Sequence record: MK433578.1
Strand: one strand, 5' to 3'
From: Klebsiella phage ST15-OXA48phi14.1
Length of the DNA stretch: 33,839 nt
The position numbers and the translations under genes are program-made. Of this stretch, positions 298 to 33,839 are shown piece by piece. Under the pieces are notes generated by a model, which saw only the letters and a list, made by a program, of their open reading frames with translations, was not told the DNA's origin and did no database searches. The stretch's first letter is position 1. Each line of letters opens with the position of its first letter.

Positions 298-1311
298 TCA
301 GATGTTATTTAATGGATTTTTAGTTACAGCGTCTTCAAGATGTTCTGGTGCAAAGTGCGCATAAATCATCGTCATTTTTATATCGGCATGACCCAGAATA
401 TCGCGCAAAACCAGTATGTTTCCGCCGTTCATCATAAAGTGGCTGGCGAAGGTATGGCGAAGCACGTGGGTGCATTGCCCCTCTGGTAAGTCGATACCAG
501 CGCGTTTAACTGCGCGCTCAAAGGCTTTTCTGCATGGCGTGAACAGCTTCCCTCTGTTTTTGGGGAGTTCGTCATACAGATCCTGAGATATCGGTACTGT
601 TCGGTTTTTCTTGCCTTTGGTTTTGGTATAGGTGATCCGGAATTTTGATAACTGATGTCCCTGCAGGTTTTCGGCTTCACTCCACCGTGCACCGGTGGCG
701 AGGCATATTTTTGCAATCATCAGCAAGCTAGGGTTTTGAGAGTCAGCGCAGGCATCAAGTAAGCGTTTAATTTCGTCCGGGGCCAAGAACGCCAGTTCTC
801 CCTCTGCTATTTTGAATGTTGGTAACCCGGCGAGCGGGTTAGGCGCTGACCAGTGGCCCAGCTTTTTCAGAGTGCCAAAAACTGATGATAAGTTACGCTG
901 TTCCAGGTTTACCGTGCGGGGCTTTACTGGCGACATCAGCCCGCCGTCTTCGTTACGTAATTCACCTTTTAATCGTGCTTCGCGATATCTTGTAAAGTCT
1001 CCGGCGGTTAACTCAGAGGCGACGGGATCGCCCAGGCCATGGCAGATAATATTCAGTTTCGCCATTAGGCGCTTAGGGTCTGCCAGTGTCTGGCCGTAAA
1101 GGGAGTGCCACTGCTCAATCAATTCTGACAAACGCCGCCGATCTTCCTTTTCACCCAGCCATGGTTTTTTGTTCACTTCATCCATGGTGAAATTTTCGAA
1201 TGCTACAGCCTCGCCCTTTGTCGCAAATTGCTTGCGCACACGCTTCCCGTCACGTCCGTTCGGATAACATTCGCATAACCACTTTCCGTTCGGCTGCTTT
1301 CTGATCGTCAT
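298..1311 (-). CDS. int: Tyrosine integrase (P2 Int-like)
   Basis: 337-aa ORF. The N-terminus resembles P2 Int (MTIRKQPNGKW...GRDGKRVRKQFATKGEAVAFE). The C-terminus has the tyrosine-recombinase motifs (HVLRHTFASHF...LGHADIKMTMIYAHF). Confidence 0.9.
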   Translation of the reverse strand: MTIRKQPNGKWLCECYPNGRDGKRVRKQFATKGEAVAFENFTMDEVNKKPWLGEKEDRRRLSELIEQWHSLYGQTLADPKRLMAKLNIICHGLGDPVASELTAGDFTRYREARLKGELRNEDGGLMSPVKPRTVNLEQRNLSSVFGTLKKLGHWSAPNPLAGLPTFKIAEGELAFLAPDEIKRLLDACADSQNPSLLMIAKICLATGARWSEAENLQGHQLSKFRITYTKTKGKKNRTVPISQDLYDELPKNRGKLFTPCRKAFERAVKRAGIDLPEGQCTHVLRHTFASHFMMNGGNILVLRDILGHADIKMTMIYAHFAPEHLEDAVTKNPLNNI

Positions 1312-3664: not shown

Positions 3665-3891
3665 TGGCTGATTCTATGGACCTCGTACAGCAGCGCGTTG
3701 AAGAAGAACTCCAGCGGCACATCCACACCGCCCGCAGTAAAGCGCCGGGCGTTTCCCGTGTCTTGTGCATTGACTGCGACGCACCAATACCGCCTGCCCG
3801 CCGCCGCGCTATTCCTGGCGTGCAGTGCTGCATCACCTGTCAGGAAATCGCAGAGCTGAAAGGCAAACATTACAATGGGGGGGCTGTATGA
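3664..3891 (+). CDS. TraR/DksA-family C4 zinc-finger protein
   Basis: 75 aa with CIDCDAPIPPARRRAIPGVQCCITCQ, the four-cysteine TraR/DksA signature. Translationally coupled on both sides. Confidence 0.7.
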   Translation: MADSMDLVQQRVEEELQRHIHTARSKAPGVSRVLCIDCDAPIPPARRRAIPGVQCCITCQEIAELKGKHYNGGAV

Positions 3892-4745
3892 GCACCATCC
3901 TAAAATGGGCGGGCAATAAAACCGCCGTCATGCATGAGCTGAAAAAGCACCTGCCTGCAGGCCCGCGACTGGTTGAACCTTTCGCGGGTTCCTGCGCTGT
4001 GATGATGGCGACAGAGTATCCTCATTATCTTGTTGCTGATGTGAATCCTGATTTAATTAATCTATACAGTGTCATTAAAGACGACGCTGACCATTTGATA
4101 TCTATAGCTAAAGACCTATTTGCTAAAAATAATTCAGCAGAATGCTATTACGATATTCGAAAAGAGTTTAATCATGGTCGTGATTGGCCCGCTGTTTGCC
4201 ACTCAGCTATGTTTATTTTTCTTAATCGTCATGGTTACCGTGGCTTATGTCGTTATAACCTTAAAGGTCATTTCAACGTCCCATACGGTAATTACAAAGC
4301 ACCTTATTTCCCGGAAAGCGAAATCAGAGCATTTGCCGAAAAGGCAAAGCGTGCCACCTTCATTTGCGCCAGCTATGAGGAAACATTGGCAATGCTGGAG
4401 TCGGGGGATGTTATCTACTGCGATCCTCCGTATGACGGTACATTTTCCACTTACCACACTGACGGATTTACCGAGGATGATCAGTATCATCTGGCGTCTA
4501 TCCTTGAGCGTCGGGCATCAGAAGGCCATTCGGTCATTGTTTCGAACAGCGACACTTCTCTGACTCGTTCCCTGTATCGAAATTTCACTCATGACCGCAT
4601 TAACGTAAAGCGCAGCATCGGCGTTGCTGCGGGCGAAGGAAAAAGTGCTGACGAACTTATTGCTGTACTGAAGCCGGGAGTATGGGCTGGCTTTGATCTA
4701 GCTGGCGGACCTGATTGCTCTGTCGTGCATGAGGTGCGCGCGTGA
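3888..4745 (+). CDS. dam: DNA adenine methyltransferase (Dam-like, orphan N6-adenine MTase)
   Basis: [18 protein letters not shown]...PFAGSCAV (SAM-binding motif I) and the catalytic DPPY motif ([15 protein letters not shown]). The start at 3888 overlaps the upstream stop. The track start at 3825 is an extension. Confidence 0.85.
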
Positions 4746-7156
4746 GTCATCACGAAGTTGAAAAGCACGGCGGAGCAGAAGATTCCGCCGCTGCTTTTGC
4801 CTGGAATATACCTAAAAAGGCGATTAACCCATATCTGGACCCGGCGGAAGTTGCGCCGGTGTCTGCGCTTTCAAACCTGCTCGCTCTCTACGCCAGCGAC
4901 AACGAGCAGGAGCAGCTGCGCCGTGAGGCGATGAGCGATGAGGTCTGGGAACGCTATTTCTACAATAAAGCCCGTGATCCTGTTCAGCGTGAAATGGAGC
5001 AGGACCGGCTGATTAGCCATGCCAAAATGGCACGCGAGCAGCAGCGTTTTAATCCCGATCTGGTCATTCTGGCTGACGTTAACGCCATGCCGTCCCATAT
5101 CAGCAAGCCTCTGCTGGAGCGGATTAGATATTTCCATAGTCTGGGCAGAGCAAAAGCCTATTCCCGCTACCTGCGTGAAACCATCAGGCCGTGCCTCGAA
5201 CGCCTGGAGCGCGTGCGTGCAAGCCAGGTTTCTGCGTCATTCCGCTTTATGGCGAGCCACGACGGGCTGGAGGGCCTGCTGGTTCTGCCGGAAATGAACC
5301 AGGATCAGGTTAAGCGGTTATCTACCTTGGTGGCGGCACACATGAGCATGTGTCTGGATGCTGCCTGCGGTGAGCTGTTTGCGGATGAAGACGTTACGCC
5401 GGAAGAGATCCGCCGGTCATGGGAAAGGGTGGCCGCTGAGGCCATGTGCCTTGATGTTATCCCGCCTGCTTTCGAGCAGCTGCGCCGTAAAAAGCACCGC
5501 CGTAACCCGGTCCCGTACGAACTTATTCCGGGTTCGCTTGCCCGTATGCTCTGTGCTGACTGGTGGTATCGCAAGCTGTGGCAGATGCGGTGTGAATGGC
5601 GAGAAGAACAGCTGCGCGCCGTCTGCCTGGTTAACAAAAAGGCGTCTCCGTATGTCAGCTATGAGGCCGTGATCCATAAACGCGAACAGCGCCGCAAATC
5701 GCTGGAGTTCTTCCGCTCGCATGAACTGACCAATGAGCAGGGCGATACGCTGGATATGGAAGACGTGGTAAACGCCAGCAGCAGCAATCCGGCACACCGG
5801 CGCAACGAAATGATGGCCTGCGTTAAAGGGCTGGAGCTGATCGCAGAAATGCGTGGTGAATGCGCCGTGTTCTATACCATCACCTGTCCGTCACGCTTTC
5901 ACGCAACGCTCAATAACGGCAGGCCAAACCCTAAATGGACCAGTGCCACGGTCCGGCAGAGCAGCGATTATCTGGTGAATATGTTCGCCGCCTTCCGTAA
6001 GGCGATGCACAAAGCCGGGCTGCGCTGGTATGGCGTCCGCGTTGCTGAGCCACACCATGACGGCACCGTGCACTGGCACCTGCTGTGCTTCATGCGCAAA
6101 AAAGACCGCAAGTCCATCACTGCGCTGCTGCGTAAATTTGCCATCCGTGAGGACCGCGAGGAGCTGGGAAATAATACCGGCCCGCGCTTTAAATCTGAGC
6201 TGATCAACCCGCTCAAGGGGACGCCTACCAGCTACATCGCGAAGTACATCAGTAAGAACATCGACGGGCGTGGCCTTGCTAACGAAATCAGCAAAGAAAC
6301 CGGCAGATCACTGCGGGACAATGCCGAACATGTCAATGCCTGGGCTTCGCTGCATCGCGTCCAGCAATTCCGCTTTTTCGGTATTCCGGGGCGTCAGGCA
6401 TACCGCGAGCTGCGTTTGCTGGCAGGCCAGGCCGCGCGACAGCAGGCCGATAAAAAAGCCGGTGCGCCGGTACTGGATAACCCGCGTCTGGATGCCGTGC
6501 TGGCGGCAGCCGATGCCGGGTGTTTTGCCACCTACATCATGAAACAGGGCGGCGTACTGGTTCCGCGTAAACATCACCTGGTCCGCACGGCTTATGAACT
6601 CAATGACGAGCCATCAGCCTATGGCGATCACGGCATCCGTATTTATGGCATCTGGTCCCCGATTATTGAGGGCCGGATTTGCACGCATGCGATGAAGTGG
6701 AAAATGGTTCGTAAGGCCGTTGACGTTCAGGAGGCGCCAGCCGACCAGGGCGCTTGCGCCCCTTGGACTCGTGGCAATAACTGTCCCCTTGCTGAAAATT
6801 TGAACCAACAAGGGAAAGACAAATCAGCTGATGGGGATACCAGAACGGAGATCACCCGCATGGATGACAAGGAGTTGCACGATTACCTGCACAGTATGAG
6901 CAAAAAAGAGCGCTGGGAACTGGCAGCAAGGTTACGCCTGGTGAAACCGAAACGGCGTAAAGACTACAAACAGCGAATTACAGAGCATCAGCGTCAGCAG
7001 CTCGTCTATGAACTGAAGTCCAGAGGATTTGATGGCAGCGAGAAAGAGGTCGATCTGCTCCTTCGCGGTGGCAGTATTCCGTCAGGAGCAGGCCTGCGTA
7101 TCTTCTATCGGAACCAGCGTTTGCAGGAAGATGATAAGTGGCGGAACCTGTATTAA
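4742..7156 (+). CDS. A: Rolling-circle replication initiator (P2 gpA family)
   Basis: 804 aa. HUH-type motif [10 protein letters not shown]. Same position and size as P2/186 A. GTG start overlapping the dam stop. Confidence 0.85.
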
Positions 7157-7250
7157 TTACGCGGGTTAACAATTCGTGCTCTTAATAATACCAGGCATAT
7201 CAGGCTGATGAACGTAAAAAAACGTTTTACATCAGTAAGATTATTATATA

Positions 7251-7266
7251 CTGTAAATATAAACAT
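7251..7266 (+). promoter_or_regulatory. Candidate LexA (SOS) box CTGT-N8-ACAT upstream of the small ORF and dinI-like gene
   Basis: CTGTAAATATAAACAT matches the CTGT-N8-ACAG consensus with one mismatch. It sits in an AT-rich promoter-like region after gene A, upstream of a DinI homolog. Confidence 0.45.
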
Positions 7267-7309
7267 TGGTTATGCATACAGTGTTGCGTGTGGTGTCATA
7301 GGAGGAAAG

Positions 7310-7498
7310 ATGCAGGACTATTTTTTGGAGTCTTTGAAGCTCCAGCGCATTGATTTTTTTCTTAGGCTTGTAGCGGCTAGTGAGTGTAGTGATGAAGAGA
7401 AGGGGCTGGCTTTGCAATGGGTTTCTGAACTGACAGATGAACTCATGGCAAAAATCAGAACCCACGAATACAACCGCTCAATGGATGTCATCAGCTGA
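7310..7498 (+). CDS. Small protein upstream of dinI-like gene; possible Tum-like SOS-induced antirepressor
   Basis: 62-aa product from the ATG at 7310 (RBS GGAGG). It lies between the candidate SOS box and the dinI-like gene, matching the tum/p95 operon position of 186. Inference by position only. Confidence 0.35.
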   Translation: MQDYFLESLKLQRIDFFLRLVAASECSDEEKGLALQWVSELTDELMAKIRTHEYNRSMDVIS

Positions 7499-7508
7499 GG
7501 TGACTTTT

Positions 7509-7742
7509 ATGCGCATTGAAATAATGATCGATAAAGAGCAGAAGATTAGCCAGTCAACCCTGGACGCCCTTGAATCCGAGCTTTACCGCAATCTGCGCCC
7601 CCTGTATCCCAAGACGGCGATCCGCATTCGCAAAGGCAGTGCCAACGGTATCGAGTTGACCGGCTTAAAACTTGATGAGGATAAGCAGCGGGTAATGGAA
7701 ATTATGCAGCAGGTCTGGGAAGACGACAGCTGGGTGCATTAG
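7509..7742 (+). CDS. dinI: DinI-family DNA-damage-inducible protein
   Basis: MRIEIMIDKEQKISQSTLDALESELYRNLRPLYPKTAIRIRKGSANGIELTGLKLDEDKQRVMEIMQQVWEDDSWV aligns along its length with E. coli DinI (MRIEVTIAKTSPLPAGAIDALAGELSRRIQ...KQRISEILQETWE), from memory. Confidence 0.8.
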   Translation: MRIEIMIDKEQKISQSTLDALESELYRNLRPLYPKTAIRIRKGSANGIELTGLKLDEDKQRVMEIMQQVWEDDSWVH

Positions 7743-8028: not shown

Positions 8029-8247
8029 ATGTCAAGTATCGCCGCATTGAAGCTGGGTAATCCAGTTGAACGTTTGGCACGGGTTCTGAAAGAGAACCAG
8101 GACAAGCTCAATCTGAGTAAAGATGGTTTTGTGTCCGTAGATTTGTCCAACGAAGAAGCTATAAAAGCCATCCGAGATCAGATGGATAAGCTTGAAGGCA
8201 TCAAAACGAGCACTGTTAAAGCAAAATATTATTACAGAACCCGATAA
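8029..8247 (+). CDS. Small soluble protein (72 aa), first gene of a two-gene cargo operon; unknown function
   Basis: Strong RBS AAGGAGGGG 6 nt before the ATG. No predicted TM segment. Its stop overlaps the next start (TAATG). Composition is more AT-rich than the flanking phage genes. Confidence 0.6.
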   Translation: MSSIAALKLGNPVERLARVLKENQDKLNLSKDGFVSVDLSNEEAIKAIRDQMDKLEGIKTSTVKAKYYYRTR

Positions 8248-9089
8248 TGGCAACATTACTTTTAGCAGTGATTTTGGTTAGTGGTTTTATATATGTAAAC
8301 CTATCACTTTCAACACGTTATAGATATAAGCGTTCCAATGGCTGGGACGCTTATTTTTTTGTGGCTGCATGGGGAATTGTCTTTTTCCTCGCTGGCGGCT
8401 TCCTTACCTTCGCTCTTAACATCAGCGGTGGGTTTCGCTGGTTTTCTAATGCACTGAATCTGACTCCAGACAGCTTTAACGGGATGTTATCCACCACAAC
8501 CGATAAACCGCAGCGCATCAATGAAATTAAGCAAATCGCGTGGGTTGTGATTTCAATAGTTCTCGCGGCGCTGTTCGGTTGGCTAAACAAACGCCGTACT
8601 TCAAAGGGGGATCGCCGTTGGGATGCACTGGCAAAGGCAGTGGGAAACAATGCTTTTGAATCGCTGCTCATGGAAGCATCAGCTCGCCAGTTTCCTATCA
8701 TTGCTACACTTTCATCACGCAAAATCTATGTAGGGCTGGTGACTTGCCCTGCGTTGGAAAATGGATTGTCGGAACACCTTGAAATTCTCCCCTTGCTGAG
8801 CGGATATCGTGATAAAGACGACCTAACGATAAATATCACGACAAACTATCATCAGCACTATCTTGATAGCGGTGTTATCAGTGGGATGTCGCGCCTGAAT
8901 ATCCAGGATTTCCGTGTGCTGCTCCCTAAAGACGAAGTTGAAACCATCTCGTTTTTTGATACTGAAACGTATAACAAATTTAAAGAAAACGAAGCGCGTG
9001 ACCGGAAAGACTGCCGCAAGTTGGGTGGTAAAAAGCCATCCGCACGCAGGAGAAAGACTGCTGGCGACGCAGAGCAGGGTAGTGCATGA
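8247..9089 (+). CDS. Membrane protein (about 3 N-terminal TM helices plus a cytoplasmic C-terminal domain of about 165 aa with a basic tail); unknown function
   Basis: 280 aa. Hydrophobic segments at roughly residues 3-22, 35-59 and 97-113. C-terminal KLGGKKPSARRRK tail. Translationally coupled to the 72-aa ORF. Confidence 0.6.
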   Translation: MATLLLAVILVSGFIYVNLSLSTRYRYKRSNGWDAYFFVAAWGIVFFLAGGFLTFALNISGGFRWFSNALNLTPDSFNGMLSTTTDKPQRINEIKQIAWVVISIVLAALFGWLNKRRTSKGDRRWDALAKAVGNNAFESLLMEASARQFPIIATLSSRKIYVGLVTCPALENGLSEHLEILPLLSGYRDKDDLTINITTNYHQHYLDSGVISGMSRLNIQDFRVLLPKDEVETISFFDTETYNKFKENEARDRKDCRKLGGKKPSARRRKTAGDAEQGSA

Positions 9090-9137
9090 CTATGCTGCAT
9101 GAATTTGCATGATCGTTTGAGGATCGTTTTAGCTCCG

Positions 9138-9162
9138 GCCCGCCAGTTCAGGCGGGCTTTTT
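9138..9162 (+). terminator. Rho-independent terminator after the two-gene cargo operon
   Basis: Stem GCCCGCC / GGCGGGC (9138-9144 and 9151-9157), loop AGTTCA, followed by TTTTT (9158-9162). Confidence 0.7.
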
Positions 9163-9206
9163 CATATCTCATGCAGGTGCATGAAAACCACTACACAAAG
9201 CGGGCA

Positions 9207-9225
9207 GGCGTGGCGGGGATACGAG
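9207..9225 (+). other. Candidate cos cohesive-end site (186-like GGCGTGGCGGGGA...)
   Basis: GGCGTGGCGGGGATACGAG shares its first 13 nt with the 186 cohesive end as I recall it (GGCGTGGCGGGGAAAGCAT; P2 is GGCGAGGCGGGGAAAGCAC). It is a GC-rich island in an AT-rich intergenic region. Orientation relative to Q (leftward, to its right) matches P2. The 3' six positions do not match. Confidence 0.4.
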
Positions 9226-9304
9226 CGCGCGCAACAGGTAAACCCCTAGACTTGTTAAAATATTTGTCATATAAATCAAACATCAAACCTAAGGGAGGCA
9301 GAGG

Positions 9305-10738
9305 ATGATCCAGCCAAAAGTTTTTATATCCTATAGTTGGTCAAGTAAAACTCATCAGCAACATATCAAAGATATGGCTGAACGATTGGCGGCAGATGGA
9401 GTTGAAACTGTCATAGATATTTATGACTTGAAAGAAGGGGATGATAAAAATTATTACATGGAAAGAATGGTTCAAGATGAAACGGTTACGCATGTTTTAG
9501 TCATTTGTGATAAAAAATACTCAGAAAAAGCCGATTTAAGAAAAGATGGTGTCGGTGTTGAGTCGATGATAATTTCCCAGGAAATATATTCATCCGTGTC
9601 GCAGTCCAAATTTATACCATTAATATTTGAGTACAAAGATAATGGAGAGCCGTATACTCCAATCTTTCTGAAGTCTAGAATCTATATTGATTTTTCAACA
9701 CCAGAAAAAGAAAATGATAATTGGGAACGTTTGATCAGGTTGCTTTATGGAAAACCAGAATTTACTAAGCCACCATTAGGTAAGCCTCCGGTTTATTTAG
9801 AGCAAGACACGTCAAAACCGACGTATGAAATTCATGCAAAATTTCAAACTTTAAAATCAGCTGTCTTAAATCAAAAGCAGACATTAAAGGATTGCAGAAG
9901 GCAATTTTTAGAGGTGTGCCGAAATTATTGTATCTCACTACAAGTCGTAACAAACCCAACTACTGAAGATTTTGCAGCGGAAGTTTTGCAAATTCATAAA
10001 GAGCTTATTGCCGTTAGGGATGCCATTACAGACTGGGTTTTACTTGAGGGTGATACGCAGGGCGAAGACTTTTCCAAAGCACTATTACAGTTTATGGAAG
10101 TAATGTTAGCGATTAGAAATCGTCCGAAAAATGTAAGTTCATATAATGAAATATGGTTTTTGCCCCATCAGATTTTTGCGTATGAAACGTTTTTATATAT
10201 TTTGGCGGCTTTAATAAAAATTGAAGCTTTCCAGCATGTACATACATTACTGCATACATCTTATTTGCTACCCGATCATATAACCAGTCCGGGAATGGAG
10301 TTTGCTAATTACAGTGAGTTATATTTAAGCTCTGATTACCTTCAAAGTAAATTGTCCCCTGAAAACTATCGACTGTATTCCCCTGTTGCTGAGTTAGTAA
10401 AGCAAAGTGCAACTAGAGATGATGTGTCTTTCGATGATCTGAAACAAGCTGATCTTGTTGCTCTTATGATATCCTTCATTAATCCCGGTATTTTTTGGTA
10501 CCCGCAAATGTTGTTGTATTCCGGTCACTATGAGAAATATCCTCTATTTACAAGAGCAATACAGCATAGAGGATTCAAGAGTATTGCAGTTATTACCGGA
10601 ATCGATGACAGTAAACTTTTGGCTCAAAAGCTGACAGAGGGTGAGGCCCAGCGAAATACTAGCAACTGGTATCATTTCGGTTTTAATAGAGACTTTCTCA
10701 ATCAAATGAATGTTAGTCGTCTAGATAGTATTGAATGA
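9305..10738 (+). CDS. TIR/SEFIR-like domain protein (N-terminal about 150 aa) with a roughly 320-aa C-terminal domain of unknown function; candidate single-gene anti-phage effector
   Basis: N-terminus KVFISYSWSSKTHQQHIKDMAERLAADGVETVIDIYDLKEGDD...VLVICDKKYSEKA matches the FISYS...D / V-ID--DL--GD / VLV-CS--Y TIR-2/SEFIR pattern (compare IL-17R SEFIR KVFITYSADH). Strong RBS AAGGGAGG. Very AT-rich gene, clearly lower GC than the phage. Lies in the A-to-Q hotspot. Confidence 0.65.
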   Translation: MIQPKVFISYSWSSKTHQQHIKDMAERLAADGVETVIDIYDLKEGDDKNYYMERMVQDETVTHVLVICDKKYSEKADLRKDGVGVESMIISQEIYSSVSQSKFIPLIFEYKDNGEPYTPIFLKSRIYIDFSTPEKENDNWERLIRLLYGKPEFTKPPLGKPPVYLEQDTSKPTYEIHAKFQTLKSAVLNQKQTLKDCRRQFLEVCRNYCISLQVVTNPTTEDFAAEVLQIHKELIAVRDAITDWVLLEGDTQGEDFSKALLQFMEVMLAIRNRPKNVSSYNEIWFLPHQIFAYETFLYILAALIKIEAFQHVHTLLHTSYLLPDHITSPGMEFANYSELYLSSDYLQSKLSPENYRLYSPVAELVKQSATRDDVSFDDLKQADLVALMISFINPGIFWYPQMLLYSGHYEKYPLFTRAIQHRGFKSIAVITGIDDSKLLAQKLTEGEAQRNTSNWYHFGFNRDFLNQMNVSRLDSIE

Positions 10739-10743
10739 AAATT

Positions 10744-10769
10744 AGAGAGCGCTTTGCAAAGCGCTCTCT
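10744..10769. terminator. Perfect 26-bp palindrome (AGAGAGCGCTTTG/CAAAGCGCTCTCT) between the convergent TIR-like gene and portal gene; likely bidirectional terminator
   Basis: Seen directly. 13-bp arms with no loop mismatch, T-rich flanks on both strands. Located in the 35-bp gap between two convergent stop codons. Confidence 0.6.
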
Positions 10770-10772
10770 GTA

Positions 10773-32849: not shown

Positions 32850-33212
32850 TGGTGGAGCTGGCGGGAGTTGAACCCGCGTCCGAAATTCCTACATCCTCGG
32901 CACTACATGCTTAGTCAGTCTTTACATTCGCTTGCCAGCTGCGGACAGACACGCCACTAACAAACTAGCCTGATTAGATTTAACGCTTCAACCCCAGGCA
33001 GGGCATCCACGCGATCTCTTTTGGGTTTGACCTCTCTTTGATCCCCGTCTTAAGAGCGGAAGCTAGGGAGAGAGGGCTCAGAGCAGGTTATTAAGCTGCT
33101 AAAGCGTAGTTTTCGTCGTTTGCGACTATTTTTTGCGGCTTTTTACGAGGCCAACCGCCCCTCGGCATGCACCTTGGGTTTCGCAAATCCCGTCGAATCC
33201 AGAATCAGCCCC
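32850..33212 (-). ncRNA. ssrA: tmRNA (SsrA)
   Basis: The minus-strand sequence starts GGGGCTGATTCTGGATTCGACGGGATTTGCGAAACCCAAGGTGCATGCC and ends ...GGACGCGGGTTCAACTCCCGCCAGCTCCACCA, matching enterobacterial ssrA. The tag-reading-frame region is also recognisable. Confidence 0.9.
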
Positions 33213-33356: not shown

Positions 33357-33839
33357 TTAACGTCCGGCGTGCTTCATAATACGCGCCTTATCCAGCGCCC
33401 ATTCACGATCTTTCAGGTCGGTACGCTTGTCGTGCTGTTTCTTACCTTTGGCGACGCCGATTTTCACTTTGCACCAGGCGTTCTTCCAGTACAGCGACAG
33501 GGCGACGACGGTGTAACCTTCGCGGTTAATGCGGCCGTACAGCGTGTCGAGTTCGCGCTGGTTGAGCAGCAGCTTACGGGTGCGCGTCGGGTCGCAGACA
33601 TAGTGGGTGGAAGCCACGGCCATGGGCGTAAAGTTGGCGCCGAACAGGAAGGCCTCGCCATCCTTCAGGATGACATAGCTATCGCCGATGTTGGCTTTGC
33701 CTGCACGCAGGGATTTGACCTCCCAGCCCTGCAGGGCGAGACCAGCCTCGTATTCATCTTCGATAAAGTATTCGTGACGGGCGCGTTTATTCAGCGCAAT
33801 GGTGGCTGATCCAGGTTTGTGGGCTTTTTTCTTAGTCAT
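33357..33839 (-). CDS. smpB: SsrA-binding protein SmpB
   Basis: 160-aa ORF ([47 protein letters not shown]...) typical of enterobacterial SmpB, immediately upstream of ssrA. Confidence 0.9.

Follow-up and report, generated by a model that had tools for sequence, protein, structure and literature searches.

P2-like phages are known to keep defence systems in the gpA-gpQ hotspot beside their cos site (Rousset et al., 2022; PMC9122126). In Klebsiella phage ST15-OXA48phi14.1 (MK433578.1), of which we analysed one stretch of 33,839 nucleotides (the window), this hotspot holds an AT-rich gene that raises the question of what it does for the lysogen, and whether it represents a new defence system, as the initial annotation had proposed. 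We found that the gene is a full-length member of the already named single-gene system bSEFIR, ordinary rather than new. The gene is real and its role for the lysogen is almost certainly anti-phage; we put a probability of about 85% on the reading that it encodes an abortive-infection defence made of a single polypeptide and borne as a moron by a P2/186-like prophage integrated at ssrA.

Family membership and domain architecture

The ORF begins with ATG, is intact and encodes 477 aa. The protein contains the motifs KVFISYSW, VIDIYDLKEGDD, VLVICDKKYSE and GVGVESMII, and the original reading of these as a TIR_2/SEFIR pattern agrees with the Pfam matches. Using hmmscan, SEFIR (PF08357) matched aa 4-143 across profile positions 1-150 of 150 (1.5e-14; 55.0 bits) and TIR_2 (PF13676) matched at 2.7e-13 (50.9 bits), with both scores exceeding the curated cut-offs. 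SEFIR outscores TIR_2, as in the SEFIR-above-TIR selection rule of Millman et al., which we applied with hmmscan and for which the original procedure was HHsearch.

The initial annotation had suggested a PADLOC scan, with a strong match to a named system counting against novelty, and such a match was obtained. The PADLOC bSEFIR model PDLC03957 aligned to the whole protein (6.9e-103; aa 3-475), to the N-terminal half alone (1.9e-81; 273 bits), and to the C-terminal half alone (313 residues; 2.9e-16; 58 bits; profile positions 195-384), with ~114 C-terminal residues falling in insert states of the alignment. PHROG 11745 likewise matched over the full length (8e-223), and full-length homologs measure 475-482 aa. 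Because the whole protein strongly matches a published model, the claim of a new system fails, and with it the description of the C-terminal domain as unassigned; the reading as a single-gene TIR/SEFIR anti-phage moron stands. PADLOC or DefenseFinder would label this gene automatically, and the hotspot was already described by Rousset et al., 2022.

The TIR/SEFIR fold expected at the N-terminus is present in the structure prediction. The AlphaFold model matched the BcSEFIR crystals 5y8e and 5y8f of B. cereus with target-normalised TM scores of 0.85-0.87 (E ~1e-7), and 5y8e was also recovered by sequence (2.5e-29). The next-best fold matches were the human Act1 SEFIR and SPARTA TIR NADases. Invariant residues of the domain include D38, D47, K48 and E86, the last within a GVGxE motif. 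Among 30 homologs, D38, D47 and E86 never vary and D41 hardly does; D38, D47 and E86 are also carried by BcSEFIR, whereas Lys replaces E86 in the non-enzymatic adaptor Act1. Glu86 is likely the catalytic residue, in a G82-E86 region that the model predicts with low confidence (pLDDT <50 at residues 83-85).

Residues ~165-477, which had been described as helix-rich and matching no nameable domain, are indeed helical in the model and without a Pfam domain. This C-terminal domain is modelled confidently (pLDDT 92), and a list of its invariant residues was compiled. It resembles protein-binding repeat scaffolds; we found no specific solved relative and no recognisable fold relative of the solenoid. 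It is purely helical, without a P-loop, and neither Pfam nor PADLOC detected an NTPase domain. The domain was fused to SEFIR in all 64 of 64 long representatives, and we rejected the idea that it is a swappable sensor used with other effectors, as the apparent exceptions were N-terminally truncated SEFIR proteins or fragments.

Both domains are under purifying selection, with dN/dS of 0.02-0.04 in the N-terminal and 0.07-0.08 in the C-terminal domain, and these averaged values gave no sign of positive selection. Compared with distant homologs, the N-terminal domain is 65% identical and the C-terminal domain 40%. This faster evolution of the C-terminal domain fits a sensor role, and we regard the domain as a probable sensor or regulatory module. 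Its much weaker profile match and its insert states suggest that the sensor may recognise a different trigger.

Position, expression signals and distribution

In P2 the A-to-Q interval is the site of tin and old, as the initial annotation had stated and as the P2 annotation bears out. The cos core GGCGTGGCGGGGA (9207-9219) differs from that of P2 cosL/cosR at the W position alone, and the cos region is invariant across the bSEFIR loci compared. The bSEFIR gene occupies the left end of the packaged genome, where it is flanked by cos and Q and is the first gene to follow cosL (Table 1). In other prophages this Q-side slot is taken up by a P-loop NTPase or by another bSEFIR clade, such that two clades, 43% identical, alternate in one slot of P2-like phages. 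The adjacent slot is empty, or holds an HNH endonuclease or a pair of genes, p72 and p280. The locus presents clean two-slot modular shuffling around cos. We rejected p72 and p280 as bSEFIR partners: the pair was also found with the P-loop NTPase and SEFIR was also found without the pair, and because each occurs without the other they are not linked.

Table 1. Features of the bSEFIR locus, in window coordinates
Feature	Coordinates	Strand	Basis
Terminator-like hairpin (Rho-independent), closing the A-side operon	9137..9158	+	
cos cohesive-end sequence GGCGTGGCGGGGATACGAG	9207..9225	.	P2 cosL/cosR comparison; separates the hotspot's two cargo slots
Candidate sigma-70 promoter	9247..9275	+	-35 TAGACT (9247-9252), 17-nt spacer, -10 TATAAA (9270-9275)
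Shine-Dalgarno AAGGGAGG	9291..9298	+	Sequence; GG-GAG core conserved across loci
bSEFIR gene	9305..10738	+	ORF; PADLOC 6.9e-103; PHROG 11745; full-length homologs; dN/dS 0.02-0.08
N-terminal SEFIR domain, putative NADase effector (aa ~4-150)	9314..9754	+	Pfam SEFIR; PDB 5y8e; invariant residues
Low-confidence linker (aa 151-169)	9755..9811	+	pLDDT <50 in full-length model
C-terminal all-alpha solenoid (aa ~170-477), putative sensor/regulatory domain	9812..10735	+	
Bidirectional palindromic terminator, common to the SEFIR gene and Q	10743..10770	.	Position of P2's tQ

The gene is more AT-rich than the phage (GC of 36.2% versus 54.1% in the window outside the hotspot), and its GC3 is 31% versus 69% for Q. 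The strong ribosome binding site ascribed to it was recovered 6 nt ahead of the ATG. A candidate promoter was read by eye and then backed by conservation, as both hexamers are conserved, with a variable spacer, in loci whose proteins share as little as 73% identity. An automatic promoter scan upstream of the gene found nothing, because the final base of the -10 hexamer is A. The proposed terminator/cos region upstream corresponds to a terminator-like hairpin together with the cos core, and the perfect palindromic terminator downstream to a 12-bp palindrome that scores as a terminator on both strands and sits between the stop of SEFIR (10738) and that of Q (10773). These signals support the earlier view of an independently acquired and expressed moron, with horizontal acquisition into the cos-proximal hotspot.

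Copies with 99% identity were present in 7 of 5,426 complete E. coli genomes, where RefSeq labels them "SEFIR domain-containing protein". Full-length relatives are encoded in 481 species-representative genomes, and the family spans more than 20 phyla and is horizontally mobile. The 80 top-ranked loci in the genome scan included full-length relatives with 42-50% identity in Verrucomicrobiota, Chloroflexota, Nitrospira, Planctomycetota and Methanosarcinales, and none in Bacillus. With the BcSEFIR domain as query, all the SEFIR proteins recovered were short (87-264 aa), and a full-length bSEFIR from Bacillus was not among them. Our literature search found no experimental study of the enterobacterial P2-borne bSEFIR clade.

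The earlier statement that the window lacks a companion module holds, since none of the 35 other window ORFs matched ThsA, STING, SAVED, Argonaute or NLR models in PADLOC, and the neighbouring ORFs gave no PADLOC match to a defence partner. At 49 diverse loci from many phyla, the largest neighbour family in common reached 5 of 49. bSEFIR thus appears, from gene neighbourhoods, to work without an obligatory partner gene. Elsewhere in the window, strong PADLOC matches were to orphan/type II methyltransferase models, consistent with a phage Dam-type methylase found by Pfam, and three further matches were PD-Lambda-5_B (4.6e-9), LmuB and PbeC (both near 1e-4).

Proposed mechanism and rival explanations

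The bSEFIR system was described and tested by Millman et al., 2022, with a prototype from Bacillus sp. NIO-1130 that defends against phi29; defence is abolished by D40A, a substitution aimed at SEFIR-SEFIR interaction and the sole mutation described in the preprint (bioRxiv 10.1101/2022.05.11.491447). Mutations that escape the prototype map to the major capsid protein, and co-expression of the capsid protein alone was not toxic (bioRxiv 10.1101/2022.08.27.505566). The escape mutants make the capsid the likely determinant, and since the capsid alone is non-toxic, direct sensing is only putative. According to later papers that cite this work, the SEFIR domain of the single protein depletes NAD+ and causes abortive infection, which the phage NARP1 pathway counters.

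By analogy with the Bacillus sp. NIO-1130 system, we infer NADase activity, a trigger and protection for the phage-borne protein. The lysogen would transcribe the gene from its own promoter between cos and the start codon, and the protein would presumably rest in an inactive state, with the C-terminal alpha-solenoid as sensor or autoinhibitor. By the same analogy, a late structural component of a superinfecting phage would be recognised by the C-terminal domain. The SEFIR domains may then self-associate in a TIR-like manner and would convert NAD+ to ADP-ribose and nicotinamide; NAD+ depletion is published for the prototype. As published generally for NAD+-depleting systems, replication of the invader would be impeded and the energy supply of the infected cell would suffer; NAD+ depletion in that cell would protect the clonal lysogen population.

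A TIR-superfamily protein could instead act as a signal maker of the Thoeris ThsB type, whose nucleotide second messenger activates a chromosomal effector of the host while the protein itself leaves NAD+ intact. The TIR_2 match (2.7e-13) would suit such a role, as would P2-like phage AC1, whose copy of the hotspot encodes a TIR protein accompanied by membrane effectors (PMC9122126). However, none of the 41 window ORFs matched ThsA or ThsB in PADLOC, no neighbour is conserved across the 49 loci from many phyla, and the literature has SEFIR deplete NAD+ as a single protein. The horizontal mobility of the gene across more than 20 phyla rules out reliance on an effector encoded elsewhere. We consider a ThsB-type signal maker very unlikely, and the original comparison with Thoeris ThsB holds at the superfamily level only.

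Uropathogenic E. coli has TIR-containing virulence proteins, and prophage morons often encode virulence factors. Such a factor, delivered to host cells, would disrupt Toll/IL-17 receptor signalling through SEFIR-SEFIR mimicry, with which the similarity to the human Act1 SEFIR is compatible (profile E=3e-4; Foldseek 9.8e-4), and ~2% of P2-like phages carry cytolethal distending toxin in the same hotspot (PMC9122126). Full-length relatives in free-living taxa without an animal host count against a virulence factor, as does the invariance in bSEFIR homologs of a catalytic-type Glu that Act1 lacks. Moreover, neither a secretion signal nor a secretion-system context was seen, and the PADLOC defence model matches the full length; a virulence role strikes us as exceedingly improbable. 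The protein might also be a non-enzymatic scaffold that protects or acts solely by binding other proteins, for example through sequestration of a phage structural protein or through some other function of benefit to the phage, such as exclusion of superinfecting P2 relatives. A general protein-interaction role was the original idea for bacterial SEFIR domains (Yang et al., 2018, in the form cited by Millman), D40A as the only mutation of the preprint targets SEFIR-SEFIR interaction (bioRxiv 10.1101/2022.05.11.491447), and the C-terminal solenoid is itself scaffold-like. We give this idea little credence, as later work describes NAD+ depletion by SEFIR that is reversed by the NARP1 NAD+-reconstitution pathway, and the GVGxE Glu with the many invariant polar N-terminal residues looks more like an active site than a surface patch.

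Under the favoured reading of an NAD+-depleting bSEFIR defence, we tentatively raise the possibility, itself rather doubtful, that the P2-borne clades are functionally distinct sensors with a coliphage trigger other than the determinant implicated for the Bacillus prototype. The fixed place directly after cosL, with a conserved promoter in front, might permit expression right after DNA entry besides expression from the prophage, and the alternation of clades may stem from selection for distinct target ranges as P2-like phages compete. If true, a known system would gain sensor specificities and a rule of position, and no new kind of system would be involved. The locus also offers an E. coli-native bSEFIR with its native promoter in a tractable host; the published experiments used the Bacillus protein.

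Comparison with known systems

The phage protein shares with the bSEFIR prototype an N-terminal SEFIR domain followed by a ~300-aa helical C-terminal region, a single-gene organisation with no conserved partner, and residence in defence islands or hotspots. It differs in its location on the Q side of cos in a P2-like prophage of Enterobacteriaceae, and in a C-terminal domain whose match to the family profile is only moderate (58 bits). BcSEFIR of Bacillus cereus F65185 (PDB 5y8e, 5y8f) shares ~40-50% identity and a GVGTE motif over the crystallised SEFIR-domain construct (144-154 aa).

DSR2 and DSR1 have a SIR2 NADase at the N-terminus, joined to a large helical-repeat sensor at the C-terminus. 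They also combine in one polypeptide an N-terminal NAD+-depleting effector with a C-terminal alpha-repeat sensor for a phage structural protein, and their abortive infection is likewise countered by NARP1. Unlike bSEFIR, they use a SIR2 effector fold, are much larger and have no sequence relationship to it.

Thoeris ThsB, SPARTA TIR-APAZ, TIR-NLR/AVAST and CBASS-TIR have the flavodoxin-like fold of the TIR superfamily and NAD+ as substrate in common with the phage protein; the TIR part of the PADLOC Aga_TIR models matched it weakly (2e-5; aa 20-131), and Foldseek matched SPARTA TIR at E ~5e-3 to 3e-2. In contrast to these modules, the phage gene comes without ThsA, Argonaute, STAND NTPase or cyclase, and SEFIR scores above TIR. 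As specific assignments we rejected Thoeris, neither of whose models (ThsB, ThsA) matched among the 41 window ORFs, and TIR-NLR/AVAST-type STAND defence, which would bring an NTPase domain that Pfam and PADLOC did not find; for short pAgo/SPARTA, neither APAZ nor Argonaute turned up in the window by PADLOC. The eukaryotic SEFIR domains of IL-17 receptors and Act1/TRAF3IP2 are homologous (profile E=3e-4 to 9ot1_E; Foldseek 9.8e-4), but they are signalling adaptors, with Lys at the Glu86 position in Act1.

Lastly, P2 old/tin and other gpA-gpQ cargo resemble the phage gene as AT-rich morons of the cos-proximal hotspot with their own transcription signals and a role in lysogen defence. The P2 old/tin proteins are unrelated to it and are encoded leftward on the A side of cos, whereas the phage bSEFIR gene runs rightward on the Q side.

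Identity and expression signals of the gene

By every feature for which the analysis gave a clear result, the 477-residue protein is a member of bSEFIR, a named single-gene defense system with a prototype in Bacillus sp. NIO-1130. The decisive result was a match to the PADLOC 'bSEFIR' model PDLC03957 over residues 3-475 (E = 6.9e-103), which was also matched by the N-terminal 164 residues (1.9e-81) and the C-terminal 313 residues (2.9e-16; profile positions 195-384) when each was searched alone. PHROG 11745 spans the whole protein (8e-223), and the family is therefore already catalogued among phage proteins, where it is listed as function unknown. The initial annotation, which had proposed a candidate single-gene anti-phage system with an unassigned C-terminal domain, was thus right in kind, but its novelty is removed by the match to a named system, and the C-terminal domain belongs to the same model. 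Since standard defense-annotation models label the gene automatically, RefSeq names it and its hotspot has been published, the gene is already known.

The proposed TIR/SEFIR fold of the N-terminus held at the level of both sequence and predicted structure. Pfam SEFIR (1.5e-14; residues 4-143, the whole profile) and TIR_2 (2.7e-13) both exceeded their curated thresholds, and the domain matched the Bacillus cereus SEFIR crystal structures 5y8e and 5y8f by sequence (2.5e-29). An AlphaFold model built with 30 homologs (mean pLDDT 82.9) reached target-normalised TM-scores of 0.85-0.87 against these structures, followed by matches to the human Act1 SEFIR domain and to TIR domains from SPARTA NADases. 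Glu86, within a GVGxE motif, is invariant in 30 homologs and also found in BcSEFIR, and the position is Lys in the non-enzymatic adaptor Act1. Judged by this conservation, Glu86 is the best candidate for a catalytic residue.

The reading frame starts with ATG and contains all of the motifs originally quoted, and the reported AT-richness, ribosome-binding site and bounding elements were likewise borne out. Its GC content is 36.2% (GC3 31%) versus 54.1% for the window minus the hotspot, and GC3 in Q is 69%. The Shine-Dalgarno sequence AAGGGAGG lies 6 nt 5' of the ATG. A terminator-like hairpin and the cos site, GGCGTGGCGGGGATACGAG, which has its core in common with the annotated P2 cosL/cosR ends, precede the gene, and a palindrome separates its stop codon from the convergent stop of Q. 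Between cos and the start codon, TAGACT (-35-like) and TATAAA (-10-like) elements 17 nt apart stay conserved against a diverging spacer and flanking sequence, in loci with proteins only 73-90% identical. Such conservation supports a dedicated promoter and suggests independent, moron-like expression. The 69-codon ORF that overlaps the hairpin and cos is probably not a gene but a recurring gene-calling artefact of the conserved cos region.

Coordinates of features in the window
Feature	Position	Strand	Remarks
Integrase	298-1311	-	window end opposite tmRNA/smpB
Adenine methyltransferase	3825-4745	+	Dam-type (D12 class), upstream of gene A
phrog_698 ORF and DinI-like gene	7208-7742	+	first genes past A
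72-aa and 280-aa gene pair	8029-9089	+	A-side slot
72-aa gene	8029-8247	+	phrog_9843
280-aa gene	8247-9089	+	phrog_3630
69-codon ORF	9099-9308	+	phrog_28685
Terminator-like hairpin	9137-9158		upstream of bSEFIR gene
cos site	9207-9225		
bSEFIR gene	9305-10738	+	477 codons
Palindrome	10743-10770		12 bp, perfect; terminator score on both strands
tmRNA gene	32850-33212	-	tag ANDENYALAA; right edge
smpB	33357-33839	-	right edge

The prophage and the two slots of its hotspot

The window holds a complete P2/186-like prophage, arranged as integrase, CI, CII, Dam methylase, gene A, hotspot, and Q, P, O, N through to D. The tmRNA gene and smpB at its right edge indicate integration at ssrA. The phage-borne methyltransferase gene contains an AT-rich dip, matches the PADLOC orphan methyltransferase model (5e-106) and probably encodes an anti-restriction or regulatory methylase. 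Past gene A come a small ORF assigned to phrog_698 and a DinI-like gene (Pfam DinI 7.7e-24), called as mutually overlapping frames of 96 and 101 aa (62 and 77 aa in the RefSeq versions); because this pair is retained in all E. coli prophage loci compared and in many IMG/VR P2-like contigs, it behaves like backbone rather than variable cargo.

The cos-proximal gpA-gpQ interval of P2-like phages is a hotspot that occurs in 1,650 gene arrangements and harbors many defense systems (Rousset et al., 2022; PMC9122126). The earlier placement of the gene in this interval stands, with the refinement that it lies between cos and Q, on the opposite side of cos from P2 old and tin; by this position it is the leftmost gene of the packaged chromosome. 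Comparing the window with E. coli LS4, JS316 and MB06173 shows that cos divides the hotspot into two independently assorting and recombining cargo slots. The A-side slot is empty in LS4, carries an HNH endonuclease in JS316 and holds the 72-aa and 280-aa gene pair in the window and MB06173; MB06173 has a P-loop NTPase in the Q-side slot, which is occupied by the bSEFIR gene in the other three. The exact combination in the window was absent from every complete E. coli genome in our collection and present in two IMG/VR contigs (L088 and L108). Eight further P2-like IMG/VR contigs (L102-L109; gene at ~6001-7437 in most, 1-1437 in L106) carry a second bSEFIR clade, only 43-44% identical, which adjoins Q with the orientation unchanged; in the seven contigs where cos was found, it lies ~230 nt upstream of the ATG, versus 98 nt for the clade in the window.

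The gene pair filling the A-side slot has 45% GC and is translationally coupled. The 280-aa protein is hydrophobic in its N-terminal half and matches DUF2207_C weakly; neither gene matched anything in PADLOC or anything significantly in Pfam. In MB06173 the pair neighbors the P-loop NTPase, and other E. coli carry divergent forms at ~82% DNA identity. This uncharacterised cassette of cargo genes could be a separate defense or exclusion candidate.

Distribution and domain evolution

Full-length relatives (475-482 residues, 42-50% identity) were found in 481 of 185,579 species-representative genomes, from Verrucomicrobiota, Chloroflexota, Nitrospirota, Planctomycetota, Bacteroidota, Pseudomonadota and Methanosarcinales. 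This range agrees with the published breadth of bSEFIR, more than 20 phyla including Methanosarcina (bioRxiv 10.1101/2022.05.11.491447). No neighbor family was common to more than five of the 49 loci with adequate flanks in this set, which supports a single-gene system; the commonest starts like a restriction-enzyme subunit, as read from N-terminal sequence only. The gene is rare in complete E. coli genomes (7/5,426; 99.2-99.4% identity), all seven copies bearing the RefSeq label 'SEFIR domain-containing protein', and relatives occur in 4 of 50,697 GenBank phage records: two of Escherichia phage 500465-1, both with a fragmented gene, one of Clostridium phage D-1873 and one of a metagenomic phage. 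Escherichia phage 500465-1 is the only coliphage with the gene among deposited records. In its record NC_049342 the gene lies in five tblastn pieces at 5215-6644, annotated as a 143-aa 'TIR domain-containing protein' and a 103-aa hypothetical protein. The portal, terminase and gpA genes are also split there and IS21/IS100 fragments are present; a genuine pseudogene looks less likely than errors in sequencing or assembly.

Modelling both domains, as originally suggested, recovered the SEFIR fold at the N-terminus and nothing specific at the C-terminus. Residues 165-477 alone gave a confident all-alpha structure (pLDDT 91.8, pTM 0.92), predicted to be a solenoid-like helical array; because Foldseek returned no specific match in the PDB or BFVD, and a profile search of PDB sequences found only the SEFIR domain, the modelled fold has no identifiable solved relative in these databases. 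Searched exhaustively with HMMER, 1.84 billion cluster representatives yielded 531 relatives of the C-terminal domain (E ≤ 0.001). Among the best 150 of these 531, 64 representatives are 400 residues or longer, and every one of them has the N-terminal SEFIR domain; the shorter relatives are fragments or N-terminal truncations. Among the representatives examined, the C-terminal domain thus appears dedicated to bSEFIR, with none joined to another effector domain. Mean identity to distant homologs is 65% for the SEFIR domain and 40% for the C-terminal domain, and dN/dS within the P2-borne clade is 0.02-0.04 and 0.07-0.08, respectively. Purifying selection acts on both, and the C-terminal domain evolves 3-4 times faster, as expected of a conserved effector joined to a sensor that changes more quickly.

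Proposed mode of action and known systems

SEFIR is reported to deplete NAD+, and a phage NAD+-reconstitution pathway, NARP1, overcomes SEFIR defense (bioRxiv 10.1101/2024.02.11.579819). Mutations that let phages escape lie in the major capsid protein, and co-expressing that protein alone does not elicit toxicity, which points to sensing of a higher-order capsid structure or of a complex (bioRxiv 10.1101/2022.08.27.505566). By homology, the protein would be inactive at rest in the lysogen, with the C-terminal solenoid as the detector of some late component of a superinfecting phage; on detection, SEFIR domains may associate and hydrolyse NAD+, aborting infection. A corollary is that the P2-type capsid of the resident prophage should not act as a trigger. 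The present analysis itself shows which family the protein belongs to, along with its predicted fold, architecture, constraint and context; activity, trigger and phenotype are inferred from what is published on the Bacillus prototype.

Other roles fit these data less well. Signalling in the manner of Thoeris is unlikely because, as first noted, the gene has no accompanying ThsA, nor any conserved partner. Virulence directed at eukaryotes is also unlikely, given relatives in free-living and archaeal lineages and an enzyme-type Glu, and a role as a scaffold alone is at odds with the NAD+ depletion reported for SEFIR.

Of the known systems, Thoeris, SPARTA and TIR-NLR each have defining features that the protein lacks. 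DSR1 and DSR2 combine an NADase at the N-terminus with a helical sensor at the C-terminus; the likeness of the bSEFIR protein to them is functional, although the sequences are unrelated.
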